A stretch of 64,000 bases of DNA from an uncultured Gemmatimonadota bacterium (GTDB lineage Bacteria > JAAXHH01): assembly GCA_951812955.1 (NCBI GenBank), contig OX638340.1, positions 1,536,001 to 1,600,000 of the forward strand, in the 5' to 3' direction. Under the pieces are notes generated by a model. The model worked only from the letters and a program-made list of their open reading frames with translations. It was not told where the DNA came from and ran no database searches. The stretch's first letter is position 1. Each line of letters opens with the position of its first letter. Both the position numbers and the translations under genes were made by a program. Below are positions 4,081 through 57,025 of the stretch, one piece after another.

Positions 4081-4118
4081 CCTGGTTAAAAACTGTAACC
4101 GGGTATGTTATTTTGCCT
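4081..4118. terminator. Putative bidirectional intrinsic terminator between convergent purK and the Sel1-repeat gene
   Basis: Hairpin CCUGGUUA-aaaacug-UAACCGGG (8 bp stem including one U-G pair) followed by the U-rich tract tatgttattttg. Confidence 0.45.
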
Positions 4119-13196: not shown

Positions 13197-13793
13197 TTTT
13201 GTTCCAGCCAGAGCATTTCGAATTAGGCTATGACTAAAGTGTGGATTTCGTTTGTGACTAGGTATGAGGTATGGTTATGAATCTTACACAGACCGAGTCG
13301 TCAGTTTTATCTATAAGGTATCTACGGTGAAATGCAATCTACATTTACTGGAGAATGCCAGAAGGAATCAAATCAAAGAGCCATGTATCAAGCATCAAGA
13401 AATTGTGGCGTAGGAACGTGGATCTGAATTGAATACGTCAATCGTGTACAAAATGACAGTCGGAATACTCAATAGCCGTATCCCTGGTAAAAATCATCAT
13501 CGTTAACCTATAATGTGAAAATTGACAACCATGTCGTCATAAAACTATGAAATCTTACAACATGGTATACAAAATACGTAATACCAACCTAGCCGATCGC
13601 TTGCTCCGAACATCACCCAACCGTTTGCCCAACATTCCCCGCAACTACGCAGATCAGCGCATTAGCGTGCATGCAAAATATCGATATTTATACGGATAGT
13701 TTACGAGATTATTGCTATTCCCCCGACTGGTATGATACATACCTTGTGTAGTATGAGCATGCTGGTGATATCTCATCAAAGGAACCAAGTAGA

Positions 13794-14027
13794 ATGGAAC
13801 TCGCGCAGCTACTCATCACGCCAGGCACACTGCTGACGGCCTTCATCTTCTTCTGGAAACAGGCCAAAACCGGCAGGGACGAAATGAGGCGGGAATTGAA
13901 GGCAGATATGAAGGAATTGAAGGACGAGTTAAAGGTAGAAATAACTTCCGTCCAGACAGAAGTGCACGATATGAACGGACGTCTCGGCCGCGTCGAGGGC
14001 TTGCTGAAGGCAACGGGCTCCGGTTGA
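13794..14027 (+). CDS. Small hypothetical protein (N-terminal TM helix plus a charged coiled coil) inside an AT-rich island
   Basis: 77 aa ORF with a GGAACCAAG-type RBS region. No recognisable family. Confidence 0.3.
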   Translation: MELAQLLITPGTLLTAFIFFWKQAKTGRDEMRRELKADMKELKDELKVEITSVQTEVHDMNGRLGRVEGLLKATGSG

Positions 14028-14188
14028 TTGCGGCAGAATTGCCGACGCATCGTGGTTTATCTAATGGAACCCGTTATGCTCGCCGAAGAAGATATCGAAG
14101 CCCGGCCGATTGCGCGATTCTCAGATCTGCCGGATTCCAATGATCTGTGGCCATAGAGCATGTTGAGGTGCCGTGATGGTCAATCGCA

Positions 14189-14689
14189 CTACTTTCCATT
14201 CGCCTTCCAATAATCCGCCAGCGCCCTGCCTTTGATCTCCCTAAGTGAATCTCTCATTTTCTGTCTACCGGCTTCGTCATTGGTCACGACACCGAAAGTG
14301 CTGTAGTCGCCGGGCTCCATGTGCATCCTGACGAAAACGCCTTCAGCGTGCGACTCGAATCGTACAAAGTGACCGAACGCGATATTCATGTCGTAGACGT
14401 ATCCCTGAAGCTCGCCCGCGCTATTCTCGTTCTCGATGCAGTATATGTTGACATACAACACCAGTTCATCGAAATCCCACGATCTCTTGCGATTGATCCC
14501 CGCTTTTTCCAACTCGCTATCCACGATCGGTTCGAGGTTCCATCCGCATTGGGTATCCTCATGAAATTCAACAAACAGCTCGTCGGGTTTTTCGTTCTTA
14601 AGGTGGGAAAGATCCACTTTTGACTGAGCCCGCGCGTTGTATGTGAAAACCAGAACGCAGGTGGCTAACGACATTAGCAGGTATCTCAT
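14189..14689 (-). CDS. Secreted hypothetical protein
   Basis: Signal peptide MRYLLMSLATCVLVFTYNARAQ. Lower GC than its neighbours. No recognised domain. Confidence 0.45.
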   Translation of the reverse strand: MRYLLMSLATCVLVFTYNARAQSKVDLSHLKNEKPDELFVEFHEDTQCGWNLEPIVDSELEKAGINRKRSWDFDELVLYVNIYCIENENSAGELQGYVYDMNIAFGHFVRFESHAEGVFVRMHMEPGDYSTFGVVTNDEAGRQKMRDSLREIKGRALADYWKANGK

Positions 14690-43256: not shown

Positions 43257-45107
43257 ATGCATCCTGCCACCGAACATATACACCTCGCCATCTGTCCTGA
43301 TCACAAGGCGCTTTCGCGGACCGTTGCCAGGGAGATCGTCGGGTACGCCCAGGCGCGCGCCGAGGCGGGGAAGATGGCCGTACTGGGCCTTTGTACGGGA
43401 TCCACGCCCATCGACGTGTACGGGGAACTGATCGCGCTGCACCGCGGCGGCGTCAGTTTCGAGAACATCGTCACCTTCAACCTCGACGAATACTACCCCA
43501 TGTCGCGGCAGTCGACCCAGAGTTACCACCGCTACATGCAGGAGTATCTCTTCGACCATGTGAACATACCCGAAGACCAGGTCTACATCCCGTTGGGCGA
43601 CCTCGCGCCGGAGGAGATCGAGGACCACTGCGCATGGTACGAGGAACGTATCCGATCCGTGGGCGGCATCGGCATCCAGCTCCTGGGCATCGGGCGCACC
43701 GGCCATATCGGGTTCAACGAGCCCGGTTCCCTGCCGAACACGCGCACCCGGTTGATCCGCCTGGACGAGAGTACCCGCAAGGACGCCGCTTCCGATTTCT
43801 TCGGCGAGGACAACGTGCCCATCGAGGCGGTGACCATGGGCGTCGGCACCATCCTCGACGCGGAACGCATCATCCTCATGGCCACGGGCGAGCACAAGGC
43901 GCCCATCATCCGCAAGGCGGTGGAGGGCGAGGTCAGTCCGCTCGTGGCGGCCAGTTACCTTCAGAACCATCCGAACACGACGTTCTTCATCGATCCGCCC
44001 GCGTCCAGCGAACTGACCCGGGTAAAGCGGCCCTGGCTGAACAACCACGCGGTGGAATGGTCCGACCAGCTTTCGCAACGGGCCGTGCTCTGGCTTTGCG
44101 AGCAGGCGGAGAAGCCCGTATTGCACCTGCAGCGCCGGGACTACAACGCATACGACCTCTACTCCCTGGTGGATACCGTCCAGACAGTCGACGAACTCAA
44201 CCGGAAGACCTTCGACGCGGTCCGCGCCAAGATCTACGGCCGCGAGGACTTTTTCACCAACAAGCGCTGCGTCTGCTTCTCGCCTCATCCGGACGACGAC
44301 GTCATCTCCATGGGCGGCACGCTGTACCGGTTGTCCGGCGCCGGGAACGACATTACCATCGCTTACATGACCAGCGGGAACATCGCCGTATTCGACGAAG
44401 ACGTGAAGCGGCTTATCGATTTCATCGGCCTGACCTTCCGGGACCTGGGATGCGCCCACGCGAAGTTCGACGGAATCGTGGATACGGTGAGTTCCTTCAT
44501 CGAGACGAAACTGCCCGGACAGGTGGATATCCCCGAAGTCCAGATCATCAAGACCAACATCCGCCGGTCCGAAGCCATCGCGGCGGCGTCGACGCTGAAC
44601 ATCCCGCCGGAAAAGACCCGGTTCCTGGACCTGCCCTTCTACAAGACCGGGCAGGTGAAGAAGCATCCCATCGGCGATGAAGACGTGCGGATCGTCCTCG
44701 ATATCCTGAACGACGTCCGTCCGGAAGTTGTTTTCGTCGCCGGCGACCTCTCCGACCCGCACGGAACCCACCGCATATGCAAGGAAGTCATCGACCGGGC
44801 CCTCACTGTCTACGACAGGACGGACCCCGACGTGTGGCTTTACCGGGGCGCGTGGCAGGAGTGGGAAGTGGACGAGGCGGACGTGTTCATTCCCCTCTCG
44901 TACGAAGATCTCCAACGCAAGATCCAGGCCATATTCCGGCACGAATCCCAGAAGGATACCGCCATGTTCCCCGGTGCGTACGACGACAGGGAGTTCTGGG
45001 AGCGGGTGCAGGACCGGAATACCCACACGGCTCGGCGTCTAGACAAACTGGGTTTCCCCCAGTACTACGCCATGGAAGCCTTCGTCCTCGAGCGCGGCGG
45101 GGCGTGA
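43257..45107 (+). CDS. nagB: Two-domain glucosamine-6-phosphate deaminase-like protein: NagB/SIS-type deaminase N-domain fused to an LmbE/PIG-L-like deacetylase-fold C-domain (the NagB-II architecture described in Bacteroidota)
   Basis: LGLCTGSTP...TFNLDEYY...GIGRTGHIGFNEPGS (NagB), then the C-terminal PHPDDDVISMGGT LmbE-like motif. Start placed at internal ATG 43257; the track start 43092 would overlap the previous gene by 60 nt. Confidence 0.75.
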   Translation: MHPATEHIHLAICPDHKALSRTVAREIVGYAQARAEAGKMAVLGLCTGSTPIDVYGELIALHRGGVSFENIVTFNLDEYYPMSRQSTQSYHRYMQEYLFDHVNIPEDQVYIPLGDLAPEEIEDHCAWYEERIRSVGGIGIQLLGIGRTGHIGFNEPGSLPNTRTRLIRLDESTRKDAASDFFGEDNVPIEAVTMGVGTILDAERIILMATGEHKAPIIRKAVEGEVSPLVAASYLQNHPNTTFFIDPPASSELTRVKRPWLNNHAVEWSDQLSQRAVLWLCEQAEKPVLHLQRRDYNAYDLYSLVDTVQTVDELNRKTFDAVRAKIYGREDFFTNKRCVCFSPHPDDDVISMGGTLYRLSGAGNDITIAYMTSGNIAVFDEDVKRLIDFIGLTFRDLGCAHAKFDGIVDTVSSFIETKLPGQVDIPEVQIIKTNIRRSEAIAAASTLNIPPEKTRFLDLPFYKTGQVKKHPIGDEDVRIVLDILNDVRPEVVFVAGDLSDPHGTHRICKEVIDRALTVYDRTDPDVWLYRGAWQEWEVDEADVFIPLSYEDLQRKIQAIFRHESQKDTAMFPGAYDDREFWERVQDRNTHTARRLDKLGFPQYYAMEAFVLERGGA

Positions 45108-45377
45108 CGTCCCCTCGGTGCGTTCGAGGCGTTTTTAACATGCGACGCGCCGGCCTCGGCCTCCCGACGAACCCCTCGAAAAGCAGTTGCTCTCCCGATC
45201 TTCAATCCATTATATTGGCCTGCTTGCTTGACGGCACCTGACCGGGGTCGCGACGGCGCTGAGATCCCGCACGGTGACATCCGCACGTCGAACGATCAGG
45301 ATGTCGAATCAAACTGGGTGTTGAACGATCCGGAAGTAGAACCATCGCCCGGGAACCGGGGACCATCGGAGGCACAA

Positions 45378-46325
45378 GTGCGCATAGCGGTATTCGGTAC
45401 AGGAGGCGTAGGCGGCTACTATGGAGGACGGCTTGCCGAGGCAGGAGAGGAAGTCGTATTCATCGCACGCGGCGAGCATCTGGAAGCCCTGCGGCAGAAC
45501 GGCATCCGCGTGGAAAGCACGAAGGGTGATTTCACGCTGCCCTCCATCGAAGCCATCGGGGATCCAAGGGAAGCCGGCGACGTGGACGTCGTCATGCTTT
45601 GCGTCAAGTGCTGGCAGGTGCCCGAAGCCCTCGACGGTCTCCGGCCCTTGCTCGGACCCGATACCTGTATCCTGCCCATGGAGAACGGGGTGGAGACGCC
45701 GGAGCAACTCGCCGCGGAGTTCGGCTGGCGGCACGTACTCGGCGGCGTCTGCGGGATCGTCTCGTTCATCGCCGAACCGGGTCTCATCCGGCATGTCGCC
45801 TACGAACCATTTGTCAATTTCGGGGAATGGGACAACCGCAGCAGCGAACGGGTCGACCGGTTGCGCCTGGCATTCGATCGCGCCAGGGGACTCATCGTCG
45901 ATACGCCGCCGGATATTCAGGCCGCCATGTGGCGCAAGTACATCCTCATCGCTTCGTGGAGCGGGATCGGCGGCGTGACCCGCGCGCCGATTGGCATCGT
46001 CCGCAGCCAGCCCGGCACCCGGCGGCTCCTCGAGACGGCCATGGAGGAGATCCACCGCGTGGCCACCGCCGTGGGCATCAGCCTGCCGGACGACATCGTA
46101 GCCCGGACCCTGGCCATTCTGGACAGCGTCGAATACGGCGGCACCGCCTCCATGCAGCGGGATATCATGGAAGGTAGATTCTCCGAGTTGGAAGCCCAGA
46201 CTGGCGCGCTGGTCCGCATGGGCAGGGAAGCGGGCGTGCCCACGCCGGTCAACGATTTCGTGTACCATTCGCTGCGGCCGATGGAACTTCGAACCCGAAA
46301 GCAGGTATCCTTCGAGACGCCCTGA
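45378..46325 (+). CDS. panE: 2-dehydropantoate 2-reductase (ketopantoate reductase, ApbA/PanE family)
   Basis: GTG start with a GGAGG RBS. IAVFGTGGVGGYYGG Rossmann motif and the ApbA C-terminal domain. Confidence 0.75.
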   Translation: MRIAVFGTGGVGGYYGGRLAEAGEEVVFIARGEHLEALRQNGIRVESTKGDFTLPSIEAIGDPREAGDVDVVMLCVKCWQVPEALDGLRPLLGPDTCILPMENGVETPEQLAAEFGWRHVLGGVCGIVSFIAEPGLIRHVAYEPFVNFGEWDNRSSERVDRLRLAFDRARGLIVDTPPDIQAAMWRKYILIASWSGIGGVTRAPIGIVRSQPGTRRLLETAMEEIHRVATAVGISLPDDIVARTLAILDSVEYGGTASMQRDIMEGRFSELEAQTGALVRMGREAGVPTPVNDFVYHSLRPMELRTRKQVSFETP

Positions 46326-46612
46326 GTCGCGGGCAGTATACATTCAGGGTCCGGAGTCGCGGGCAGTATCGTTTCAGGCGCACTGTGGCGCCCGGGGCGC
46401 GACCCGAGACGATCCGAGACGACCCGAGACTCATCTGACGACCGAGGCGCGATGTGGCGCCCGGGGTACGACCCGAGACTCATCTGACGACCGAGGCGCA
46501 CTGTGGCGCCCGGGGTACGACCCGAGACTCATCTGACGACCGAGGCGCGATGTGGCGCCCGGGGCGCGACCCGAGACGACCCGAGATGATCCGAGACACA
46601 TCTGACGACCGA
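46324..46612. repeat. Complex intergenic repeat array. It has two copies of GAGTCGCGGGCAGTAT, then four copies of a ~49-bp unit. Each unit contains a GGCGC-n6-GCGCC hairpin and GACCCGAGAC sub-repeats.
   Basis: Units GGCGC(a/g)(c/a)TGTGGCGCCCGGGG(t/c)(a/g)CGACCCGAGACTCATCTGACGACCGA begin near 46376, 46443, 46492 and 46541. The first and last units carry extra GA(C/T)CCGAGAC copies. Confidence 0.8.
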
Positions 46613-46635
46613 ACCGGCCTGCCGGAGCAACCCGC

Positions 46636-47634
46636 ATGAAGTCATTTCTTGAACGCATTGCCGACGATCGTCCCCTCCTTTACGACGGCGGTTTCGGCAC
46701 CGAGCTCTTCGTCCGGGGCATCGAACTGGCCAACAGCGCACTGGCCAACGAACTTTACCCCGACATTGTCAGAGACATCCATTTCGATTATATTGAAGCA
46801 GGCGCGGAAGTGGTGGGAACGAATACGTTCGTGGCGTCTTATCCCCATCTCGAAATGGCCGGGAAGGACGCCTCGGAATCCGAGCAGCTGATCCGGCTTT
46901 CCTTGGAACACGCCCGAGCCGCCATCGAGCGAAGCGGCAGGGAGGTGTACCTGGCCGGTTCCATCGGACCATTGCCGGGCGCCATCGAGGCCGACAGCGG
47001 CGACACGGAGTTCGGCATTGCCAACAGCATCGCCCGGGACGCCCACGAGCGCGTGGGAACGGTCCTGGCGGCAGGCGGGGTGGATTTCTTCTGTGTCGAG
47101 ACCATGTTCTCCGCCAACGAGGCGGCCCTGGCCATCGACGTATTGAGGCAGTTCGGCCTGCCCATCGCCGTGAACCAGACGTACAAATATACGAAGGACC
47201 GCGCCACGGGCGAGGTCGTTTACAAGACCGACTGGGGTCATTCGGCAGCCGATCTCCTGGAGATCCTGGCAGGCGGCGCGCAGTCTGGCGGTGGCGACCT
47301 GCTCGAGCATGTGCAGATCGTCGGCCTGAACTGCGGGGCGGAATCCCGGCGCGACGAGCACACGGGCATGCCTTACGCCATCAGCGGCATCGGCCAGTTG
47401 AAACGCGCCATGGAAGCCAGGGCAGAGGAACCGAAACGCATGATGGCCTACCCGAACGCCGGGAAGGCGCGTCTCGATGAGCAGCACCGGACCTATTACG
47501 ACAATACCCCGGAAGAGATGGCGGCCTCCGTACCGAATCTCCTCGAGGCCGGCGCTTTCTTCATCGGCGGCTGCTGCGGCACGGGCGTCGCCCACATCCG
47601 GGCCTTCCGCGAAGCGATGGACAGGATGGCATGA
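46636..47634 (+). CDS. Stand-alone homocysteine S-methyltransferase-domain protein (Pfam S-methyl_trans, like the MetH N-terminal Hcy-binding module), with zinc-thiolate ligands conserved
   Basis: DGGFGTEL N-terminus. Conserved Cys in VGLNCGAE and the GGCCGT motif (FFIGGCCGTGV). Confidence 0.85.
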   Translation: MKSFLERIADDRPLLYDGGFGTELFVRGIELANSALANELYPDIVRDIHFDYIEAGAEVVGTNTFVASYPHLEMAGKDASESEQLIRLSLEHARAAIERSGREVYLAGSIGPLPGAIEADSGDTEFGIANSIARDAHERVGTVLAAGGVDFFCVETMFSANEAALAIDVLRQFGLPIAVNQTYKYTKDRATGEVVYKTDWGHSAADLLEILAGGAQSGGGDLLEHVQIVGLNCGAESRRDEHTGMPYAISGIGQLKRAMEARAEEPKRMMAYPNAGKARLDEQHRTYYDNTPEEMAASVPNLLEAGAFFIGGCCGTGVAHIRAFREAMDRMA

Positions 47635-47900
47635 CGAAGTACCAGGTTCTTTACTGGCGTGACATTCCGGCGCAGGTGCGCGTCTACGGAGGACGGCGTC
47701 CACTTTCACGCCAGATGCCCGACTGGTTCCAGCAGGAAATCGACCGGGTGGCCATGCGGGACGGACTCACTGGTACCGACGCCTACCTGGACGAGTGGCA
47801 CTGGTCTGAAAAACAGGAATGGACCGGCGAAGAGAAAGAACCCGATACGGTGGCGGAAGCCATTTTGAAGCGGCTCGAAGACGGGTTCGACAAGGGATAA
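47631..47900 (+). CDS. Small conserved hypothetical protein (89 aa) translationally coupled (ATGA overlap) to the Hcy-methyltransferase gene
   Basis: ORF overlaps the upstream stop by 4 nt. No family assigned from sequence alone. Confidence 0.4.
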   Translation: MTKYQVLYWRDIPAQVRVYGGRRPLSRQMPDWFQQEIDRVAMRDGLTGTDAYLDEWHWSEKQEWTGEEKEPDTVAEAILKRLEDGFDKG

Positions 47901-47904
47901 AACC

Positions 47905-47994
47905 GGACGCGACGGGCAAGGAGCAAATGCGGCGGGCAGTTATCAAGTCCGTCCGCAACCAGCCACAGCAATGGTCGGACGCGACGGGCAAGGA
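47905..47994. repeat. Two direct copies of a ~22-bp element GGACGCGACGGGCAAGGAGCA(N)GGGCAG, 67 bp apart
   Basis: ccggacgcgacgggcaaggagcaaatgcggcgggcag and tcggacgcgacgggcaaggagcaggaccgggcag, immediately upstream of the ORF at 48035. Confidence 0.7.
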
Positions 47995-48034
47995 GCAGGA
48001 CCGGGCAGCATCGAAAACGTAAGAGGCGGCAGAT

Positions 48035-48673
48035 ATGGGTCAAACAGTCGACATAGGCAGGCGCATCGAACTGGTTCCGCTGGATCCCCATTTCGGGGAC
48101 ATATCCATCGGTCTTTACCGCCAGCACGACGATACCGGGCCGGTCTACCAGGTATACACCTACAGCCGGCGGGAAGGCGTCGAGGACCGTATCGCCTTTG
48201 TGGTAAAGGCCATGGGAGTACTGGGCGGGATGGAACAGGCCAGCGGCGGACGCCTTCGGTTCCCCTGCGGCCATGAACATCACATGGGGGTAAAGCGGGT
48301 GTTTCTCGAAGCCTGCAAGCTGGACCCTGCCGGCCCCGCGGAACCGCGGCCCCTGGAGATCCTCGACAAGAAATCGGGCCTTCAAATCCAGGTCCTGAGC
48401 GAGGGAGACGGCGTGTATCGCGTCACGGCCCATGGGGAAGGCAAGGACCGCGAGCGTCGCATTTCCTTCATCGCCGGTGGTCTGATGAAGCTGGCCGAGA
48501 TAGACGAGGTAAGCGGCACGCTGGACCAGGTGGTTTTTCCCTGCGCCCGTGTCCACGACGCGATGATCGGGCAATTGCTGGTCCGCGCGCCGAACGTCCG
48601 GGCCGTCCTGCGCGAGCAAGAGGCCGTGCTGAGTAGGGGCGTCCTGGCGGCGCCCAGCCAGCAGGATGGTTAG
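48035..48673 (+). CDS. Hypothetical protein (212 aa) inside the corrinoid methyltransferase cluster
   Basis: ORF with plausible coding composition. PCGHEHHMG His-rich motif. No family assigned. Confidence 0.45.
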   Translation: MGQTVDIGRRIELVPLDPHFGDISIGLYRQHDDTGPVYQVYTYSRREGVEDRIAFVVKAMGVLGGMEQASGGRLRFPCGHEHHMGVKRVFLEACKLDPAGPAEPRPLEILDKKSGLQIQVLSEGDGVYRVTAHGEGKDRERRISFIAGGLMKLAEIDEVSGTLDQVVFPCARVHDAMIGQLLVRAPNVRAVLREQEAVLSRGVLAAPSQQDG

Positions 48674-48751
48674 TAGTAACCATAGAGCCCGAATGATGAC
48701 TACGCGATCACGCGATCGTCGAAAGCTCGATCGATCGATAAGGAGGCAGTC

Positions 48752-49795
48752 ATGAGCGACGACCTCATCAGGGAGATGAAGGGCCGGGATCGGGTGCTGG
48801 CCGCCCTCAGGCGGGAGCCCGTGGATCGCACGCCCGTATGCAATCCGACGTCTGTCGCCACGGTGGAGCTGATGGACCTGGTCGACGCCCCCTTTCCGGA
48901 TGCCAACCGGGACCCGGAACTGATGGCCCGGCTGGCGGCCACCGGGTACACCGAGCTGGGTTTCGACAGCATCATGCCGGTCTTCACCATTATCCAGGAA
49001 TCCTCCGCGCTGGGCTGCAAGATCCAGTGGGAGCAAAAGGACAACTGGCCCACGGTTAAGATGCGCGAGCCTATCTGGGAAGACGTGGACGACATCAACG
49101 TCCCGTCCGATTTCCTTACGCACCAGGACACGAAATGCGTCCTCGACGCCATCAGCCTGCTCAAAAAGGAATACGGCGACGAGGTGGCCATCATCGGCAA
49201 GACCATGGGGCCGTGGTCGCTGGGTTACCACTGCTTCGGCGTGGAGCCCTTCCTGCTCATGTCCCTGGATGACCCCGGGAAGACCCACCTCGCCCTCGAC
49301 CGTATGAAGGAGGCCACAGTGGAGTTCGGCATCGCGCAGATCGAGGCCGGGGCGGACGCCCTGACCCTGCCGGACCACGCCACGGGCGACCTGGTGAGCG
49401 GCGAGTATTACCGGCGGTTCCTGAGGGACCTGCACATCGAACTCGTCGAACGGATCCCCATCCCGCTGATCATGCACATCTGCGGAAGGACCGTGGACCG
49501 CATGGGCTACATCGCGGAGACCGGCTTCGCAGCCTTTCACTACGATTCGAAAAACAAGCCCCAGGAATCCATGGAGGCCGTGGACGGCCAGATATCCCTC
49601 GTGGGCAACATCAACAACCCCGAGACGCTCTTCGCACGGGGTCCCGAAGAGGTGACCGGGGAAGTTTGCAGAAACCTGGAGCACGGGATTCACATGGTGG
49701 GACCGGAATGCGCGGTACCCCTCCAGGCGTCCATCGAGAACCTGAAGGCGATCCCCCAGGCCGTGAAAGACTGGCACCGCACACACGCGGCTTGA
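48752..49795 (+). CDS. Uroporphyrinogen-decarboxylase (URO-D) family methyltransferase, MtaA/MtbA/CmuA-like (corrinoid-dependent methyl transfer)
   Basis: URO-D/MtaA fold. HxC zinc motif (PLIMHICGRT) plus a downstream Cys (GPECAVP). Confidence 0.8.
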   Translation: MSDDLIREMKGRDRVLAALRREPVDRTPVCNPTSVATVELMDLVDAPFPDANRDPELMARLAATGYTELGFDSIMPVFTIIQESSALGCKIQWEQKDNWPTVKMREPIWEDVDDINVPSDFLTHQDTKCVLDAISLLKKEYGDEVAIIGKTMGPWSLGYHCFGVEPFLLMSLDDPGKTHLALDRMKEATVEFGIAQIEAGADALTLPDHATGDLVSGEYYRRFLRDLHIELVERIPIPLIMHICGRTVDRMGYIAETGFAAFHYDSKNKPQESMEAVDGQISLVGNINNPETLFARGPEEVTGEVCRNLEHGIHMVGPECAVPLQASIENLKAIPQAVKDWHRTHAA

Positions 49796-49935
49796 GGCGC
49801 AAAGGAGTCAGCTGTACGCGAGGCGCAAAGGCCACGCATTGAAAACGGGATCAGCCGCAGCGGCCGGTGCGGTCCGACTCACCGCGCGGCAGGCGGCAAA
49901 ATCGGCATGAACCAGGGAGGACCGGGAAGAAGCGC

Positions 49936-50700
49936 ATGGCAGAACTCAACGATATAGCCAACGACTTTCTTAAAGACGAAATAGAAGAGTTCATCGAAAG
50001 ACCCAACGAGCGGACGCGGATCATCGATGCCTTCGCCCGGGCGACGCCGGCCATGCAGGAGATCTCCGCGGCGCTCATCGACGGGGACAACGGCACGGTC
50101 GACACGCTTACCCGGGCGGCGCTGGACGATGGTATCGAGGCCCTGGAGGTGATGGACGACGGCCTGATCAACGGCATGAGCATCGTGGGCATCAAGTTCC
50201 GGGAGAACTTCATCTTCGTCCCGGAGGTCCTGGCCTGTGCCCGCGCCATGAAGGCCGGCATGGCCCACATCGAACCCATTCTCTCCGCCTCGGGCATCCA
50301 GCCGGTCGGCAAGGTCATCATGGGCACGGTCAAGGGCGACCTTCACGACATCGGTAAAAACCTGTGCATCATGATGCTGCGCGGCGCCGGGTTCGTGGTC
50401 CATGACCTCGGTGTAGACACCTCCGAGGACGAGTTCATGGACGCCGTGGAGGAACACGAAGCCCCCCTGGTGGGCATGTCGGCCCTGCTCACCACGACCA
50501 TGCCCAACATGGGCAAGACCATCGACGCTTTCATCGATAACGACATGCGTGAAGACGTAAAGATCATGGTGGGCGGCGCGTCGGTCACCCAGGAGTTCGC
50601 CGATGACATGGGCGCCGACGGCACCGCCGAAGACGCGGTTGGATGCGTGGAACTGGCCAACCGCCTCCTCGTGGAACTCAAGCAGGAACAGGAAGCCTGA
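49936..50700 (+). CDS. Cobalamin-binding corrinoid protein (MtaC/MtbC/MttC-like; B12-binding-2 cap plus a Rossmann B12-binding domain)
   Basis: DxHxxG (GDLHDIGKN), SxL (MSALL) and GG (MVGGAS) cobalamin-binding motifs. Start placed at the internal ATG giving MAELNDIANDFLKDE. Confidence 0.85.
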   Translation: MAELNDIANDFLKDEIEEFIERPNERTRIIDAFARATPAMQEISAALIDGDNGTVDTLTRAALDDGIEALEVMDDGLINGMSIVGIKFRENFIFVPEVLACARAMKAGMAHIEPILSASGIQPVGKVIMGTVKGDLHDIGKNLCIMMLRGAGFVVHDLGVDTSEDEFMDAVEEHEAPLVGMSALLTTTMPNMGKTIDAFIDNDMREDVKIMVGGASVTQEFADDMGADGTAEDAVGCVELANRLLVELKQEQEA

Positions 50701-50845
50701 GTAAGTTAATCGCACCTCACGGCCTGGCGGACCGGCGGTCCGATCCCGTTTCGGCGCGGGTGGTTAAGTGGCACGGCCGGGAAAGCAGCCGGGCTGGCAG
50801 ATTGGCGCGGCTGGCCGCAGCAGGATCCCTTCCCTACATTAATCC

Positions 50846-52873
50846 ATGAAAAAGATCGACAAGGCGGCGTACCAGAAGCGCCTGGACCGCATCACGGCCA
50901 TCTTCAAGGACATGATGGCTCACGCGACAGAACAGGCCACCTACCGCTGCCCATACAAAAACCGTTTTGACGAATGTACCGCCCGGTTCGGGTGCCGTAA
51001 CCAGCGCAAACCGAGGGAAGCCGGCGGCCTGCTCATGTGCGGAGGGGACGACAAACTCGACTACCGCGGCGCATGGGAGACGGAGGAAGCCCCGCACGAA
51101 AGACCGGAGCAGGTACATACGACGGATCAAAAACCGGACGCACGCCCGTCTGCGGTGCGAGAAGATGTTGTGGCTACGAGCATGGATGAAGCAGATCGTA
51201 CAGGACGGGCCGCGCCGAATGTGACCATGGATACGTCCTCAGATCCACCCGGCGGCACGGTAACCGACGGCACGACGACCCGGCCCGCGGTCATCGGCAA
51301 ATCCATCTTCGATTACGCCGACGACCTCGCCGTCCAGGTGCCCACCTCCTGTTTCCGCAACGGCATATGTCACGAGTGCATCGTGGAAATCAAACAAGGG
51401 ATGGAAGGGCTCGTGCCCAGGTCCAAGCCGGAATCCTTCCTGCGCGAGAACTACCGGCTCGCCTGCCAGGCGCGCGTGATCGACCCCAATGTGGACATCG
51501 CCTTCGCTCCGCTCCGCCGAACGCCCAAGATCCTGACCGTTACCGAAGAAAAGGAAACGCCGCTCGATCCCCTGGTCACCCGGCGGGGCGATGACATCTT
51601 CTACGACGGCGAGCAGGTCGACCTGTTCCGCGGACACGTGTACGGGCTCGCGATCGACCTGGGCACGACCACGGTGGTCATGGATTTCGTGGACCTGGAG
51701 ACCGGCCGGAGCGTCCACGTCTGTTCCTTCGAGAACCCCCAGCGCTTCGGCGGCAGCGACGTGATGCACCGCATCTCATACGACGGCGGGTTCGAGGACG
51801 AACTCTGGAACGCCATCATCAACGCCGTCAACCACGAGATCATGGACTGGTGCGAGCGGACGGAAACCGCGCGGCAGGAGATCTACGAGATCGTCGTGGC
51901 GGGCAACTCCACCATGCGCGACCTCTTCTTCCGCCTCGACGTACAGAGCATCGGCCAGAAACCCTACAAGTCGCAGATCGAAAACGAATACCTCGCGGGC
52001 GAACGAGATACCACGGCGCTGACCATCGGCACCCGGCGGCTCGGCCTGCGGGCCAATCCAAAGGCCCGTGTCTACGGCCTGCCCATTATCGCCAGCCACG
52101 TGGGCGGCGACGTGACGGCCGACCTGGCCACCGTCGACCTGGCTGCGCGGCCGGGCGTATCCATGCTGGTGGACGTGGGCACCAATACCGAGGTGGTCGT
52201 GGCAGGCAACGGACGCATGGTCACGGCTTCGTGCCCCGCCGGTCCCGCCTTCGAGGGCGGCGGAATCAAGTACGGCATGCCAGGCTACGAAGGCGCCATT
52301 GAAACATTGAAGTGGGAAGACGGGCGGTTCGACTGGCGCACCATCGGAGACTCCGCGCCCCAGGGCATCTGCGGCTCCGGGCTGATCGATCTCCTCGCCG
52401 AACTGCGCCGCCACGGCATGATGAGCCCGAAGGGGGTGTTCCCCGACCGGAAACAATTCGAGGTGCCCGTCGTAGCCGAATCCGGCATCACCCTGTCCCG
52501 GCAGGACGCCAGCAACCTGGCCCAGGCCAAGGCAGCCAACTACTGCGGCCAATACATCGTCCTCCGCGCCTTCGGCGTCGCGCCGGGCGACGTGGACCGG
52601 CTCTTCCTTGCGGGCGGTTTCGCCAACTACGTGGACGTGCGAAACGCCATCGACATCGGGTTCCTGGCCCCCGTGCCCGAAGACCGCATCTTCAAGGTCG
52701 GCAACGCCGCCGTCCAGGGTGCCCGGGAGATCCTCCTCTCCCGTTCGCGCCGCAAGGAAATGGAAACGCAGGTCAAGGACATCGAGCACATCGAGCTCGA
52801 GACTACCCCCGACTTTTTCGAGATCTTCGTCGAAGCCTGCCAGTTCAAGCCTATGCCGGGCGTGCTGGTGTAG
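50846..52873 (+). CDS. RACo/RamA-like ATP-dependent reductive activator of corrinoid enzymes ([2Fe-2S] ferredoxin domain plus ASKHA ATPase, DUF4445), with an extra Cys-rich N-terminal extension
   Basis: Plant-type ferredoxin cysteines SCFRNGICHECIVE...LACQARV. ASKHA phosphate-1 motif GLAIDLGTTTVV. A C-terminal DUF4445-like region. N-terminal about 70 aa with 5 Cys (CPYKNRFDECTARFGC...CGG). Confidence 0.75.
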   Translation: MKKIDKAAYQKRLDRITAIFKDMMAHATEQATYRCPYKNRFDECTARFGCRNQRKPREAGGLLMCGGDDKLDYRGAWETEEAPHERPEQVHTTDQKPDARPSAVREDVVATSMDEADRTGRAAPNVTMDTSSDPPGGTVTDGTTTRPAVIGKSIFDYADDLAVQVPTSCFRNGICHECIVEIKQGMEGLVPRSKPESFLRENYRLACQARVIDPNVDIAFAPLRRTPKILTVTEEKETPLDPLVTRRGDDIFYDGEQVDLFRGHVYGLAIDLGTTTVVMDFVDLETGRSVHVCSFENPQRFGGSDVMHRISYDGGFEDELWNAIINAVNHEIMDWCERTETARQEIYEIVVAGNSTMRDLFFRLDVQSIGQKPYKSQIENEYLAGERDTTALTIGTRRLGLRANPKARVYGLPIIASHVGGDVTADLATVDLAARPGVSMLVDVGTNTEVVVAGNGRMVTASCPAGPAFEGGGIKYGMPGYEGAIETLKWEDGRFDWRTIGDSAPQGICGSGLIDLLAELRRHGMMSPKGVFPDRKQFEVPVVAESGITLSRQDASNLAQAKAANYCGQYIVLRAFGVAPGDVDRLFLAGGFANYVDVRNAIDIGFLAPVPEDRIFKVGNAAVQGAREILLSRSRRKEMETQVKDIEHIELETTPDFFEIFVEACQFKPMPGVLV

Positions 52874-53122
52874 GGTGGATTGTCGACCTCGGGTATTCTA
52901 TACTAGATCTGGGATGGGAATTCAACTATTGCTATAGATCGGGTTAAAGTACTCACTGATGCATGTTCAGCCTGAGGCCTCCACAAAGAAATCATCGGTT
53001 CGAAAGGTCTGCATTTTGAGTTCCTGAATGTATTGTGATGTCTTTTATGTTGCGTGTTTTCAATATGTACAGTATTCGTTAGAAATATAGATAGTGGTGC
53101 CAACATTTTCATCGAGATTGCT

Positions 53123-53347
53123 ATGCGTCGATTCAAGATCATTGTTGAAGAACATCAGGATGGTTACGTAGCGTATCCATTAGGGCTCTCCGGAATAGTT
53201 GTTGGCCAGGGTGATACGTACGACAACGCGGTAGCGGATGTCAAATCTGCTATAGAATTCCATATCGAGAGCTTTGGAACAACGGTATTTGAGGAAGAAT
53301 CTGACGTTCTTCGCGCTTTCGTCACTGATGCGGAGTTCGTAGACTGA
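53123..53347 (+). CDS. HicB-like (UPF0150) type II antitoxin
   Basis: MRRFKIIVEEHQDGYVAYPLGLSGIVVGQGDTYDNAVADVKSAIEFHIE matches the HicB/UPF0150 fold pattern. Internal ATG 53123 chosen. Confidence 0.55.
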   Translation: MRRFKIIVEEHQDGYVAYPLGLSGIVVGQGDTYDNAVADVKSAIEFHIESFGTTVFEEESDVLRAFVTDAEFVD

Positions 53348-53541
53348 TGGCAGGTTTTCCTGTCGACGCACCTCGTCAACGAGTTAAACGTACTCTGAGC
53401 AAACTGGGATTCAAGGTCGTCCGTGAAGGCAATCATATAAACAGTTCTTGTTTCCGCTCTATGCGGAATTACTGTAGTCCATGGCTTTGTTGCCAGCAAC
53501 TCGCTGAGATTCCCCCCTATCGGATATTCCAAAAACACTGA
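53347..53541 (+). CDS. HicA-like toxin gene, possibly degenerate (N-terminal HicA motif followed by a non-matching C-terminus)
   Basis: RQRVKRTLSKLGFKVVREGNHI resembles the HicA mRNA-interferase N-terminus. The rest (NSSCFRSMRNYCSPWLCCQQ) does not resemble HicA. Start overlaps the HicB-like stop. Confidence 0.35.
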   Translation: MAGFPVDAPRQRVKRTLSKLGFKVVREGNHINSSCFRSMRNYCSPWLCCQQLAEIPPYRIFQKH

Positions 53542-53550
53542 ACCCGCAAA

Positions 53551-54495
53551 ATGTTCCACCTCCGTCCCGCCCGTCCCTCGTCCGATGAATCGGGCATCGC
53601 TTCCGTCGTCAACGCCTTCGAACAGAATCCGGTTTCAGTAGATACCGTACGCGAGTGGCTGACCCATGGTGCGCCGGGCAGAATCAGCTATCGCCAGGTG
53701 GCTGTGACCCGTGACGACGTCGTTGCAGGTTACGCGGTGTCGGTGCATGAAACCTGGAATCCGGAAGGGCAGTTCTATGCCTGGGTGGGCGTGGCGCCTG
53801 CGTGGCGGGGACGAGGTATCGGCTCAGCGCTGTACATAGACTTGATGCAATTTCTGGAGCAACACGACGCCGGTACGATTACGAGCGAGGTCCGGGACGA
53901 CTGCGCCATCTCGCTGGCATTCGCCGAGCGACACGGATTCGAAAAAGACCGGCATCTGTTTCAGTCGAGCCTGGACCTCGAAGCCTTCGACGAATCACCC
54001 TATCTGGGCACGCTTGGCGGAGTCGCCGAGGCGGGTATACGTGTGCGCTCAATTGCGGATTTCGGCGACACGCCGGACGCTCGCAGGAAACTCTACGAAG
54101 TCAACGCGATAACCGACCAGGACGTGCCTGGCTGGATCGGACCCGGGCTTTCCTTTGAGGAATTCAACGAGTGGGTGTACGTTTCGGAATGGTACCGGCC
54201 GGATGGCCAGTTGCTTGCGGCCGATGGGGATCGCTGGGTCGGGATCTGTGCGGTGCGGCTATACCCCGATGCGTGCCTGGCCTTCAACGTGCACACCGGG
54301 GTGATCCGGGCGTATCGAAAGCGTCATGTCGCGGTGGCGCTGAAACTGGCCGCGATTCGCTATGCCAGGAATCAAGGCGCGCGATCACTCAGTACGCACA
54401 ACGATTCGATGAACGGCCCCATGCTGGCGCTCAACCGGAAATTAGGTTATGTCCCGGAGCCGGGACGGTATACGCTGCGTGGGACGATGACCTGA
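53551..54495 (+). CDS. GNAT-family N-acetyltransferase with tandem GNAT domains
   Basis: Acetyl-CoA-binding motif WRGRGIGSALY in domain 1 and a second GNAT-like half (RKRHVAVALKLAAIRYARNQGARSL). Confidence 0.7.
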   Translation: MFHLRPARPSSDESGIASVVNAFEQNPVSVDTVREWLTHGAPGRISYRQVAVTRDDVVAGYAVSVHETWNPEGQFYAWVGVAPAWRGRGIGSALYIDLMQFLEQHDAGTITSEVRDDCAISLAFAERHGFEKDRHLFQSSLDLEAFDESPYLGTLGGVAEAGIRVRSIADFGDTPDARRKLYEVNAITDQDVPGWIGPGLSFEEFNEWVYVSEWYRPDGQLLAADGDRWVGICAVRLYPDACLAFNVHTGVIRAYRKRHVAVALKLAAIRYARNQGARSLSTHNDSMNGPMLALNRKLGYVPEPGRYTLRGTMT

Positions 54496-54575
54496 AGCCC
54501 TCCGGTACATCTCAGTCATTCAATTCGAGAATGAAGTCCTTTCCAGGCTCACGACACGCAGAACGCGGACGCCCC

Positions 54576-54977
54576 TTACCCTCCCATCATCGCAATACGC
54601 CGTGCCATCCACTCTACGTAGGCCGTACGTGTCATTCCCCGCCTGTCTGCCTCGCTATCTATAAACACCGCCACGCCTTCGTCAATCGCCATATGTATGC
54701 GCACGCTACGCCCGGACTGACGGATTAACGGCACTGTCGTCAGGGCCTCTCCCGGCTCTGTACTAACCTGCTCCAGTTTACTTGGTTGGATTACCCTGTC
54801 CCCATCAGTTTCCGTTTCAATTACGTAATCTCGTAGTGCTTCTTCAGCGTTCAGCAATGCCTCGTCGATGGTGTCGCCCATAGCGGCGATTCCTGGAAGA
54901 TCCGGGAAGGATACGCCATAGGCACCCATTTCACCATCTATCAATGCCGGATATCGGATAGCATTAAATACCTGCAT
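54576..54977 (-). CDS. hicB: HicB-family antitoxin with a C-terminal ribbon-helix-helix-like DNA-binding tail
   Basis: YPALIDGEMGAYGVSFPDLPGIAAMGDTIDEAL HicB N-domain. C-terminal RGMTRTAYVEWMARR. Confidence 0.75.
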   Translation of the reverse strand: MQVFNAIRYPALIDGEMGAYGVSFPDLPGIAAMGDTIDEALLNAEEALRDYVIETETDGDRVIQPSKLEQVSTEPGEALTTVPLIRQSGRSVRIHMAIDEGVAVFIDSEADRRGMTRTAYVEWMARRIAMMGG

Positions 54978-55001
54978 GTCTGAACCCTCCTACATCAAGG
55001 A

Positions 55002-55244
55002 CTAGATCTGCCAGTTTGCTTTCTTCGCAATGGTTCGTACGACACCTGGCGATATTCTCCTGTGTCTCGGCAGCGTAATTACACCTCGATTACATGGATG
55101 GCGGTAAACGTCATGCTTGGCCCCATGCCGGAACAGGTACCAACCTTCCTTTTTAATCGTCGCTCGATTTTGGTCGTGTTGGATTCCATTAAGCCACGCA
55201 ATTTTGTGCAAATATATGCACATAATGAGTTTCTTGTCAATCAT
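55002..55244 (-). CDS. hicA: HicA-family mRNA-interferase toxin
   Basis: KKEGWYLFRHGAKHDVYRHPCNRGVITLPRHRRISPGVVRTIAKKA matches the HicA pattern (GW...G.H....HP......P.H). Directly upstream of hicB. Confidence 0.75.
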   Translation of the reverse strand: MIDKKLIMCIYLHKIAWLNGIQHDQNRATIKKEGWYLFRHGAKHDVYRHPCNRGVITLPRHRRISPGVVRTIAKKANWQI

Positions 55245-55366
55245 TTCTTATTCAGTCGAGTTTCTTGTTAAAACCTCGACTAATGGAGTAATGACACCGT
55301 GGTGGACACAGCCAGTGCGAGATGTACATACGCGGAGTATCTACATTGTAGACACAGGAGGCTCGA

Positions 55367-55606
55367 ATGAAATCCCGTGTGAAGAAATGGGGCAACAGCC
55401 TGGCACTTCGCATCCCGAAACCTGTCACGGTCCAGATGGGCGTCAAGGACGATTCACCCGTTGTACTCGTGCTCCGGGGCAAGGAATTGACCCTTGTACC
55501 GTTGGAACGAACTCATCTGAAACTCCCCGAGTTGCTTTCGGGCATCTCGAGACATAACCTGCACGGAAGAACTAGCATCGGAAGCCCCGGTGCCGGTGAA
55601 GCATAA
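55367..55606 (+). CDS. mazE: MazE/PemI-family antitoxin (AbrB/SpoVT-type swapped hairpin)
   Basis: KKWGNSLALRIPK signature. Stop overlaps the mazF start. Confidence 0.75.
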   Translation: MKSRVKKWGNSLALRIPKPVTVQMGVKDDSPVVLVLRGKELTLVPLERTHLKLPELLSGISRHNLHGRTSIGSPGAGEA

Positions 55607-55962
55607 TGGGTACAACGACCTACGTACCCGTTCGGGGCGAGGTGGTGTGGGTCTACTCCCGAGCGCGGGAGGGATCATACCTGCCTTCGAGGCGTCCCGC
55701 CGTTACCATATCTCCCGAACCCTACAATCGTCGGACCGGCCTGGCTCTTTTCTGCCCGGTCACTGGCGAAGAGAAGGGATATCCCTTCGAAGTCAAGATT
55801 CCACCCGGACTGCCGGTGCCCGGGGTTATCCTGTCCGATCAGTTGGAAAGCGTGGACTGGCGATCCGGTGCGATGGAACGGATCTGTGCGCTGCCCTCGG
55901 AGACGATGGATGAAGTCCTCCGAAAATCCGCGGCGCTGCTCGATGGGGAAGACCGGCCTTGA
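55606..55962 (+). CDS. mazF: MazF/PemK-family endoribonuclease toxin
   Basis: VPVRGEVVWVYS...RPAVTISPEPYNRRTGLALFCPVTGEEKGYPFEV...SDQLESVDWRS fits the PemK/MazF consensus. Confidence 0.8.
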   Translation: MGTTTYVPVRGEVVWVYSRAREGSYLPSRRPAVTISPEPYNRRTGLALFCPVTGEEKGYPFEVKIPPGLPVPGVILSDQLESVDWRSGAMERICALPSETMDEVLRKSAALLDGEDRP

Positions 55963-56032
55963 CGGGAAACAGCAATAGTGTCATTACTTCAGATGAGAGC
56001 ATTCGAGAACTGCATGGCACCGGGGAACAACC

Positions 56033-57025
56033 TTGTCTCAGCCAACCATGAAACGCGTCATCAAACCCGAAGGCCTCCACCGGATCGAGATCGAAGAGGT
56101 GCCAATACCCGAGCCGGGTGCCGGAGAAATCCGTGTGAAGGCTGCCTGCAGCCTGATCAGCCGGGGTTCGGAACTGGGTGGCCGTTATACGCGGGAACAC
56201 GCGGTTAGCCCGGACATCATGGGCTATTCCATGGCGGGGACGGTGGACGCCCTGGGGGAAGGCATCGAACACCTGGAAATCGGGGACCGCGTCGTCGCGC
56301 TGGCGCCCCACGCCCAGTACGTCGTCCGGCCTGCCCGGCTCGTTTTTCCGTGGGACCAGACTGTCGTCATGCCCATGCCGGCGGACCTTTCCTTCGACAG
56401 CGCGCCTTACTACCCGCTCACGGCCGGTGCGGTTACCTGGGTGGAAGTGGAGGATATTCAGCCCCAGGACACGGTTGTCGTGCTCGGCCAGGGTCTCGTT
56501 GGCAACCTGATCCTTCAGGTCATCAAGGCGAATGGAGCCGGCAGGGTGGTGGCCGTGGACGCACTGGCCAATCGGTGTGCCTTGGCAGCGGAGTTTGGTG
56601 CCGATACGGTAGTCAACGCCCGCGAGGAAGATCCCGTCAAGGCCGTGAAGCGCCTTACCAACGGATTAGGGGCCGACATCGTGATCTACGCCGTGGGCGG
56701 TCCGGCTGGACCTACAGCGTTTGAGCAGGGACTCGACATGCTCGCCATTGGCGGGCTGATCCACCTGATCGGACTGTACGAGGACCAGCCTCTTTCTCTG
56801 CCTTCAGGTAAGATTCAGGGACGCAAACTGCTGGGAGGTTACTTCCGGACTCAAGCGGGTGCCCGCCAGTCCCGACGCGCCATGGAACTCCTCGCCTCGG
56901 GCGCGATCCGGACCGATCGAATGACCACGCACCGCTTTACCTGGCGCCAGGCAGCCGACGCTTTTGCGCTACTTTACGAGAAACCGAGCGACGCGTTAGG
57001 CGTCCTGCTCGATTGGCAGGATTGA
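56033..57025 (+). CDS. Zinc-binding alcohol dehydrogenase-like (MDR superfamily) oxidoreductase
   Basis: GroES-like N-domain and a Rossmann VVLGQGLVGNL motif. Confidence 0.75.
   Translation: MSQPTMKRVIKPEGLHRIEIEEVPIPEPGAGEIRVKAACSLISRGSELGGRYTREHAVSPDIMGYSMAGTVDALGEGIEHLEIGDRVVALAPHAQYVVRPARLVFPWDQTVVMPMPADLSFDSAPYYPLTAGAVTWVEVEDIQPQDTVVVLGQGLVGNLILQVIKANGAGRVVAVDALANRCALAAEFGADTVVNAREEDPVKAVKRLTNGLGADIVIYAVGGPAGPTAFEQGLDMLAIGGLIHLIGLYEDQPLSLPSGKIQGRKLLGGYFRTQAGARQSRRAMELLASGAIRTDRMTTHRFTWRQAADAFALLYEKPSDALGVLLDWQD

Follow-up and report, generated by a model that had tools for sequence, protein, structure and literature searches.

Broken hicA genes, conserved hicB antitoxins and a complete mazEF pair in a probably long-resident toxin-antitoxin cluster of an uncultured Gemmatimonadota bacterium

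The HicAB systems of Burkholderia pseudomallei (PDB 6g26, 6g1n and 4c26) and Escherichia coli (6hpb) and the MazEF system of E. coli (1ub4 and 5ck9; MazF 7d28) are the closest described counterparts of a group of small genes in a 64,000-nucleotide stretch of DNA (referred to below as the window) from an uncultured Gemmatimonadota bacterium. The group lies between the genes for a RACo-type corrinoid activase (50846-52873) and a zinc-type alcohol dehydrogenase (ADH; 56033-57025), and seven small or medium-sized genes account for all coding space from the RACo stop codon to ADH: six slots of type II toxin-antitoxin (TA) genes, making up two hic cassettes and one mazEF pair, and one gene for a 314-aa N-acetyltransferase with two GNAT domains. 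A preliminary description of this DNA had counted four small TA-type genes in three pairs. The genes sit at the coordinates first given, with the double-GNAT gene embedded among them, and their membership of the HicAB and MazEF families was borne out, but the TA genes fill six slots, of which hicB1, hicB2, mazE and mazF are intact. The explanation we favour, with a probability of about 0.8, is that of a long-resident chromosomal cluster of TA cassettes in which both hicA genes are broken, the GNAT gene is a bystander and mazEF is complete.

The second hic cassette of the window agrees with the described HicAB systems in its gene order, hicA2 before hicB2. It also resembles them in having a HicA of about 62 aa with a G-x-(K)-H motif (after repair of the reading frame), a HicB composed of an N-terminal HicB fold and a C-terminal RHH domain, and a promoter that overlaps a palindrome. 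Unlike in those systems, the toxin gene is frameshifted here and deleted in most sister species, and HicB2 is a conserved orphan. The first cassette departs further, as its order is reversed (hicB1 before hicA1) and its HicB1 is a short protein of 74 aa without a DNA-binding domain that scores under the Pfam threshold. In MazEF, MazF cleaves RNA, the labile MazE neutralises MazF, and the pair represses its own promoter. The window pair has the same antitoxin-first order and stop/start overlap, and its proteins belong to the same families, AbrB/SpoVT-type for MazE and PemK-type for MazF. The RRPAV and T-x-x-x-KGYPFEV segments of the window MazF align with what we take to be the active-site region of E. 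coli MazF. The difference is that the window pair scores under the NCBIfam equivalog cut-offs.

For the acetyltransferase two groups of described proteins have to be considered. GNAT toxins of TA systems (TacT, AtaT, ItaT and KacT) have one domain and about 170 aa, and their genes directly follow that of a DUF1778/RHH antitoxin. The window protein shares with them only the GNAT superfamily and the neighbourhood of TA genes; it has 314 aa and two domains, and the gene 5' of it is the hicA1 remnant (RACo in most relatives). The tandem GNATs, in contrast, have two GNAT domains per chain and about 310 aa; they include MshD (1ozp/2c27), 3tt2, MAB_4324 (7q3a), the clavulanate CBG protein (2wpx), the glucosamine N-acetyltransferase 5kf1 and VipF (6wqb). 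The window GNAT matches them by Foldseek at E-values of 1e-20 to 1e-15, and both its halves hold an R-x-x-G-x-G/A-like acetyl-CoA motif. It is only 12-23% identical to any of them, and its own family is centred on Chloroflexota and the lineage studied here. In the tandem GNATs characterised so far, catalysis takes place only in the C-terminal domain (PMC10936415).

Orphan antitoxins have been reported from degrading chromosomal TA loci in a population survey of Klebsiella pneumoniae, and anti-addiction, cross-talk and acquired regulatory functions were proposed as their roles (PMC7192599). The locus described here resembles those cases in that antitoxins stay in their original context once the toxin is lost. 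It differs from the survey in that a single locus was hit many times over by independent toxin-inactivating events, in different species and strains, and in that purifying selection was measured on the antitoxin once it had become an orphan.

Toxin loss and antitoxin retention in the two hic cassettes

Relatives of the locus were found through close homologues of the GNAT protein and by a subsequent scan with one genome per species, which gave 19 further loci of the lineage, and gene order was compared by tblastn of all window proteins against the lineage loci. The lineage consists of uncultured metagenome-assembled genomes assigned to Gemmatimonadota or 'Latescibacterota', and its loci are designated L001, L002 and so on. 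An exact-sequence look-up of the window GNAT and of protein P0001 gave no match, and the genomic context was taken from near-identical and related proteins.

The second cassette lies on the minus strand. Six orthologues of hicA2 (L006, L013, L015, L017, L018 and L021) read ME(S/L/I)...K(I/L)(R/S)RRL(K/L)KEGWYL... in one frame, and their start codon corresponds to the ATG at 55189 of the window. From this codon the window gene (55002-55189) reads MESNTTKIERRLKRKVGTCSG... and stops after 36 codons, while the HicA domain resumes in another frame and continues to the stop at 55002. The cause is one base missing from an A-run at 55150-55154, where the window has TTAAAAAGGAAGG and L015 has TTGAAGAAGGAAGG. 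The preliminary description had taken this pair for a normal hicA-hicB, which the 1-nt deletion contradicts. An 80-aa open reading frame (ORF; 55002-55244) does reach the gathering score of HicA_toxin (PF07927; 40.0 bits against the cut-off of 27), although the frame from the orthologous start is interrupted. This ORF exists only because an upstream ATG at 55244 lies over the promoter, adjoining its -35 box; as this codon overlies a conserved promoter, it is unlikely to be on the transcript. The repaired HicA2 protein matches the HicA structures 6g26_E and 4c26 in sequence (E 4e-6).

Strains with 95-98% DNA identity to the window differ at this very site. The 1-nt-shorter run recurs in L087, which was assembled independently; at the same spot L085 carries a TAG nonsense codon, and hicA2 is uninterrupted in L089 and L086. 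The lesion of hicA2 is thus, on the comparison of these assemblies, a real polymorphism. Within two codons, the alleles of L085, L086, L087, L089 and the window comprise a frameshift, a TAG nonsense codon, a Lys-to-Met change and an intact form. Such clustering could mark the A-run as a mutational hot spot, or it could result from selection acting repeatedly against the toxin.

Between species, hicA2 was removed outright in most sister species. The gene occurs on the deepest branches of the core tree (L017/L018, L021, L015 and L006/L013), which indicates that it is ancestral, and genomes without it retain its last 20-30 nt (...GCATCGAAGGCAAATTGGCAGAAATAG) 5' of hicB2. The promoter was kept in L002 and L012 and lost together with the gene in L001, L009, L014 and L016, and other deletion boundaries are found in L007/L019 and in L008/L010. 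Because the boundaries are of at least four different kinds, at least four independent deletions of hicA2 must have occurred, besides the frameshift and nonsense alleles.

The antitoxin gene of this cassette, hicB2 (54576-54977, minus strand), is intact in the window and encodes a protein of 133 aa with a HicB N-domain and a C-terminal RHH-type DNA-binding domain. It scores 65.7 bits on HicB_lk_antitox (PF15919), for which the Pfam gathering cut-off is also 27 bits, and its homologues carry PF15919 and PF15970. The closest solved structures are the HicB proteins 6g1n and 6g26 (E 1.4e-8), the alignment to 6g1n spanning residues 9-122. A full-length 133-aa ORF is found in almost all genomes of the lineage, with a nearly invariant C-terminal RHH-like segment; the gene is cut to 88 aa in L010, the match in L008 ends at residue 87, and the gene is absent at the locus in L005 and L028. 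The ratio of nonsynonymous to synonymous substitution (dN/dS) of HicB2 is 0.067 overall, and among L001, L009, L014 and L016, which have one hicA2 deletion in common, it is 0.07-0.14 at synonymous divergences (dS) of 0.27-0.54. Since dN/dS stays low after the loss of the toxin, the orphan hicB2 is kept by selection.

The gene for hicA2 lies 24 nt upstream of hicB2, and the two are preceded by a promoter (TTGACA, 18-nt spacer, TATATT; 55205-55240 on the minus strand with its palindrome) that has 11 of 12 sigma-70-like consensus positions (55240-55211). Wherever the promoter is retained, the sequence ATGTGCATATATTTGCAC is conserved with it. The -10 hexamer lies inside a palindrome, TGTGCA-N6-TGCACA (55205-55222), which we regard as a putative HicB2 operator by analogy with known HicAB systems. 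A second element, the inverted repeat AGTCGAG-N14-CTCGACT (55254-55281; arms at 55254-55260 and 55275-55281), sits between the divergent promoters of hicA2 and mazE. Its 7-bp arms and immediate flanks are nearly invariant in 13 of 13 aligned loci, with one position different in one or both arms of L007 and L019, and its loop varies in sequence and in length (13-16 nt). The repeat persists in genomes that deleted hicA2 and its promoter, and it may serve to bind a regulator or form a hairpin in DNA or RNA.

The first cassette is on the plus strand and consists of the intact hicB1 (53123-53347, 74 aa), the stop codon of which overlaps the start of a 64-aa HicA-like ORF (53347-53541; TGATG); each of the two hicB genes thus adjoins a hicA. 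The preliminary description had suspected this ORF, the first of the two HicA-like ones, of being decayed, and comparison with relatives confirms it. Intact hicA1 orthologues of 79-81 aa are present in the species L012 and L014 and in the sister strains L085 and L087; that of L012, given as an example (MAGFPVDAPRQRVKRTLSKLGFKVVREGNHISMVRVNPDGTRTPLTMPNHSRIKSSTLRRICTQAGIARKDFLEAYESS), scores 49.4 bits on Pfam HicA. The window gene keeps residues 1-31 (...REGNHI), has residues 32 to the end removed, and runs on into sequence that in L085 and L005 lies downstream and is non-coding. Alignment to the sister strains traces this to the loss of 186 nt between the imperfect repeats GAAGGCAATCAT and GAATGCAACAAT, with the junction near 53439, and the same deletion is found in L086, L089, L002 and L004.

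HicB1 and the hicA1 remnant, the latter matching with its N-terminus only, score 15.5 bits on PF15919 and 15.1 bits on Pfam HicA and fall under the cut-off, in contrast to the HicB2, HicA2-ORF, MazE and MazF sequences, so family assignment by Pfam threshold stands for these four only. NCBIfam gave no match for either HicA or either HicB. The HicB1 sequence has 813 detectable homologues, and the best 120 of the 813 are 72-117 aa long and 64-100% identical; the named ones among these 120 span several phyla (Rokubacteria, Brocadia, Planctomycetes, Nitrospira and others), and the NCBI/JGI names are 'HicB family antitoxin' or 'RNase H-like HicB family nuclease'. The HicB N-terminal fold is a beta-beta-beta-alpha arrangement, partially RNase H/dsRBD-like. 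An AlphaFold2 model of HicB1 (predicted local distance difference test score, pLDDT, of 88) suggests this N-terminal fold alone, without a DNA-binding domain. Its nine best Foldseek matches in the PDB are all HicB N-domains (including 6g1c, 6g26, 6u0i, 4p78 and 6hpb), with template modelling (TM) scores of 0.54-0.63 and a probability of 0.94-1.0, yet an E-value of just 0.06, which is weak because the domain is so small. Sequence searches of the PDB with the single HicB1 sequence and with a profile gave noise or a weak match to TTHA1756 (E 0.69). Taken with the intact HicA of its orthologues, the modelled fold and the names of its homologues, HicB1 is predicted to be a short HicB-type antitoxin, and its dN/dS is 0.10.

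The hicB1-hicA1 block is present in 7 of the 19 core-tree genomes (the clade of the window, L012/L014 and, in truncated form, L007) and absent from the other 12. In most relatives the spacer between RACo and GNAT is 52-66 bp long and holds no such segment. An 'empty-site' alignment of these short spacers with the ends of the 677-bp spacer of the window gave no junctions, the sequences being too divergent. In L005 (7609-8000), hicB1 and the first seven codons of hicA1 are deleted, and the remainder of hicA1 continues the frame of a GTG two bases past the RACo stop and encodes an apparently intact HicA domain (Pfam, 47.7 bits). As neither hicB1 nor hicB2 is found at that locus, this may be an unguarded toxin gene. 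The same spacer in L016 (6773-8000) holds a different insert of 1.2 kb with a GC content of 0.39 and a 313-aa ORF, for which no Pfam and no PADLOC match was found.

As judged from these alignments, both hicA genes would be dead in the window genome, and with them destroyed, hicB1 and hicB2 would remain as orphan antitoxins.

Conserved context, mazEF and the tandem GNAT

The order corrinoid protein, RACo, hicB1-hicA1 (variable), GNAT, hicB2 (minus strand), hicA2 (variable), mazE, mazF, ADH, DHDPS (minus strand) and amidohydrolase (minus strand) is conserved in L001-L019, L021 and L028, which represent about 19 species-level genomes. Concatenated RACo, ADH, DHDPS and amidohydrolase proteins of these relatives are 88-97% identical to those of the window. 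GNAT and mazEF are found in all of the genomes, and hicB2 in all but L005 and L028. The horizontally acquired islet proposed in the preliminary description can therefore not be recent, since GNAT, hicB2 and mazEF are syntenic in these relatives at the same low GC content of third codon positions (GC3). That description had itself named conserved core synteny at equal GC as evidence against its islet, and for most of the islet such evidence is now at hand.

The genes mazE (55367-55606, plus strand, 79 aa) and mazF (55606-55962, plus strand, 118 aa) overlap by 1 nt at the stop of the former and the start of the latter (TAATG, 55604-55608). MazE scores 31.7 bits on MazE_antitoxin (PF04014; cut-off 24.7) and MazF 67.3 bits on PemK_toxin (PF02452; cut-off 23.1), which places them in the AbrB/SpoVT-type antitoxins and the PemK/MazF endoribonuclease-toxin family, and the solved MazF structures 7d28, 5ck9 and 1ub4 match the window protein at E-values of 1e-18 to 3e-25. 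As their NCBIfam scores are under the equivalog cut-offs (29.3 against 113 bits for MazE, PRK09798; 83.5 against 120 bits for MazF, PRK09907), they are family members and not equivalogs of the E. coli pair. Both genes are present in all lineage loci that extend to this position, with dN/dS values of 0.20 for MazE and 0.23 for MazF. The pair, already recognised in the preliminary description, is by its sequence the only complete module in the window genome, and mazF the only complete toxin gene.

The GNAT gene (53551-54495, plus strand) encodes two Acetyltransf_1 stretches. Modelled with AlphaFold2 (pLDDT 92.6), the protein folds like MshD, as a tandem GNAT, and its best Foldseek matches in the PDB are all tandem GNATs aligned over the full length (3tt2, 7q3a, 1ozp, 2wpx, 5kf1 and VipF), with 23% identity to 3tt2 of Sphaerobacter and TM scores of 0.73/0.78 to MshD. 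Identification as a mycothiol synthase was considered and ruled out, the protein reaching 37 bits on the MshD equivalog model TIGR03448 against a cut-off of 163. Among 573 detectable homologues, those outside the lineage are mainly from Chloroflexota and 38-56% identical. Outside the lineage, 61 of 63 GNAT loci are without a TA neighbour, L053 and L056 being the exceptions, and the commonest neighbour is an ABC transporter (10 of the 63), which is too few for a functional inference from the neighbours. The preliminary description had grouped this gene with the TA islet. This grouping is contradicted by the outside loci and by the position of the gene 52-66 bp past RACo in most relatives, where it may be co-transcribed with RACo. 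The gene is under purifying selection (dN/dS 0.17). A nonsense codon at W229 makes it a pseudogene in L086 (4429-5380), where hicB2 is kept, and in L028 (8001-8703) the internal loss of residues 59-136, together with a frameshift, has the same effect; as the gene is broken in these two, it is dispensable. The sequence comparisons and the model together point to an independent, vertically kept and dispensable enzyme gene that is not part of the TA set.

Upstream of the cluster (about 45000-52873; L001:3814-9947), a conserved operon-like row encodes a corrinoid-dependent methyl-transfer system, with an S-methyltransferase (PF02574), a small PF13769 protein, a 212-aa protein, a URO-D-type methyltransferase, a corrinoid protein and RACo. 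The first part of the RACo-GNAT spacer (52874-53122) is a non-coding leader 5' of hicB1 that belongs to the variable hicB1-hicA1 segment. It had been described as AT-rich, which is correct (GC about 0.44). An Rfam scan of 52000-56600 (E <= 1) gave no match, so the leader corresponds to no known RNA. The GC dip relative to the flanking metabolic genes, also noted earlier, is real in both GC and GC3. The GC content is 0.44-0.50 across the hic genes and intergenic parts, about 0.60 in GNAT and mazF, and 0.62-0.66 in the flanks. In the window, GC3 is 0.45 for hicB1, 0.50 for hicA2, 0.53 for hicB2, 0.62-0.67 for mazEF and 0.70 for GNAT, against 0.72-0.84 for the flanking genes; the means among the relatives are 0.45 (HicB1), 0.48 (HicA2), 0.57 (HicB2), 0.73 (GNAT), 0.75 (MazE), 0.73 (MazF) and 0.81-0.87 (flanks).

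Elsewhere in the window, the kilobase of lowest GC content (0.45) is at 13000-14200 and holds no convincing long ORF. Eukaryote-like Sel1-type repeat proteins are often reported from host-associated bacteria. Two such genes on the minus strand, at 4108-5880 and 5978-8050, encode a 590-aa protein with 14 Sel1 repeats and a 690-aa protein with 17 and occupy a stretch of lower GC content (0.50-0.55).

Alternative readings of the locus

Three other explanations were weighed against that of a long-resident cluster with broken hicA genes. If the whole 3-kb stretch, GNAT included, were a stress/defence islet acquired horizontally between metabolic genes, the GC and GC3 of every gene of the stretch below those of the flanks would be accounted for. 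Homologues of HicB1 and HicB2 with about 70-75% identity occur in unrelated phyla, which fits an ultimately horizontal origin of the cassettes. The GNAT family is mostly from Chloroflexota outside the lineage, so that an old transfer of this gene is conceivable. The RACo-GNAT spacer has taken different inserts (hicB1-hicA1 and the AT-rich ORF of L016) and looks like a recurrent insertion spot. The idea of horizontal acquisition thus survives for a remote origin of the cassettes and for the variable hicB1-hicA1 segment. It does not hold for a fresh islet: gene order and composition are common to the species-level relatives, any acquisition would predate the radiation of the lineage and would not be specific to the window genome, and in most relatives GNAT is placed after RACo like a member of its operon. 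Furthermore, no integrase or transposase is found among the islet genes, a tRNA scan of the whole window found none, and direct or inverted att-like repeats around the islet amount to chance-level matches of 12-27 nt. None of the six islet proteins searched matches a PADLOC-DB model at E <= 0.01, and as only mazEF is complete here, the label of a stress/defence islet was overstated. We consider this explanation improbable. A GNAT of the TacT/AtaT kind, with one of the neighbouring HicB proteins as its antitoxin, is more improbable by far and was rejected. GNAT toxins exist, 17 of the 19 core-tree genomes have the gene next to hicB2 and convergent with it, and L028, which lacks hicB2, also has a disrupted GNAT. 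Against this stand the tandem 314-aa MshD-like fold where a single domain of about 170 aa would be expected, the lack of a DUF1778/RHH antitoxin gene upstream, and the rarity of TA genes near GNAT outside the lineage. Being convergent, GNAT and hicB2 do not form one operon, and they occur apart from each other: L005 has an intact GNAT with neither hicB2 nor hicB1 at the locus, and L086 has kept hicB2 beside a nonsense GNAT.

A working hicA2-hicB2 pair would require the 1-nt deletion to be an assembly error in a homopolymer or to be bypassed by low-level -1 slippage on A-AAA-A. Homopolymers are typical sites of sequencing errors. Lesion aside, the gene has an intact promoter and Shine-Dalgarno sequence and, past the lesion, an intact HicA domain. 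On the other side, the same shorter run is found in an independent assembly from another sample (L087), the TAG of L085 is a substitution and so cannot be a homopolymer length error, and outright loss of the gene is the prevailing trend among the sister species. Neither a recognised slippery heptamer nor a stimulatory structure was found at the lesion; programmed frameshifting at the A-run was considered and kept as a low-probability rival. A functional hicA2 in the window genome is therefore regarded as unlikely. Several observations weigh against the long-resident cluster as we describe it. The lesion lies in a run of five A, and L089 and L086 carry an uninterrupted hicA2. The promoter of hicA2 is gone in L001, L009, L014 and L016, and hicB2 would there have to be expressed without it. 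The hic genes have dS values of 1.4-1.6 against 0.36-0.52 in the flanks, and the GC3 of the islet is still low after a long residence. In L005 and L015, MazF is 59-60% identical to that of the window against core identities of 96% and 91%, and MazE is 70-72% identical (L005:9140-9786; L015:9740-10326), which suggests in-place replacement of mazEF by a diverged allele. The high dS, the lasting low GC3 and these divergent MazF proteins suggest repeated replacement of cassettes by recombination or horizontal gene transfer, and vertical descent from a single acquisition is perhaps too simple. Finally, no outgroup in which RACo adjoins ADH with no block between them was found, and for this reason the block as a whole, with its GNAT, may have been inserted long ago.

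Ageing of the toxin-antitoxin cluster

In the long-resident cluster that we favour, the ancestor of the lineage would already have possessed RACo, GNAT, hicA2 and hicB2 on the minus strand, mazE followed by mazF, and ADH. The cassettes lie at the 3' end of a corrinoid-methyltransferase/RACo operon, around an unrelated tandem GNAT, and a further cassette, hicB1-hicA1, occupies the RACo-GNAT spacer in some lineages only. In the window genome hicA1 would then have been lost to the 186-nt deletion and hicA2 to the 1-nt frameshift, leaving both HicB proteins as orphans. By its likeness to the Burkholderia HicAB, HicB2 most probably still binds TGTGCA-N6-TGCACA through its RHH domain. It would also be able to sequester HicA, and may thereby counteract HicA toxins produced elsewhere or brought in by mobile DNA. 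The most probable activity of the GNAT is acetylation of a small molecule or of an amine on a protein, and its gene would be independent of the TA genes. From what is known of its family, MazF would act as an endoribonuclease checked by a labile MazE that also represses the operon.

The retention of the antitoxins could be explained by domestication. The HicB proteins, HicB2 above all, would have been taken into use after HicA had been lost repeatedly and independently, and would now act as transcription factors or else confer 'anti-addiction' immunity against mobile DNA that bears hicA. We propose this tentatively, at slightly less than even odds. If it is true, a single locus would be a natural, replicated record of toxin-first decay of TA cassettes, holding at least four interspecies classes of deletion together with frameshift, nonsense and intact alleles that segregate in one population.

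The locus consists of known kinds of system (HicAB, MazEF and a tandem GNAT) in an uncultured lineage, and no new type of system is involved. Its analysis averts three errors of annotation, namely the GNAT as a TA toxin, the locus as a fresh genomic island and the frameshifted hicA as functional. It provides a compact and replicated case of the ageing of TA cassettes, in which the toxin was repeatedly inactivated by different lesions while the antitoxin is under strong purifying selection, and the natural occurrence of intact and broken alleles in one population makes the idea of orphan antitoxins as regulators or anti-addiction factors directly testable.

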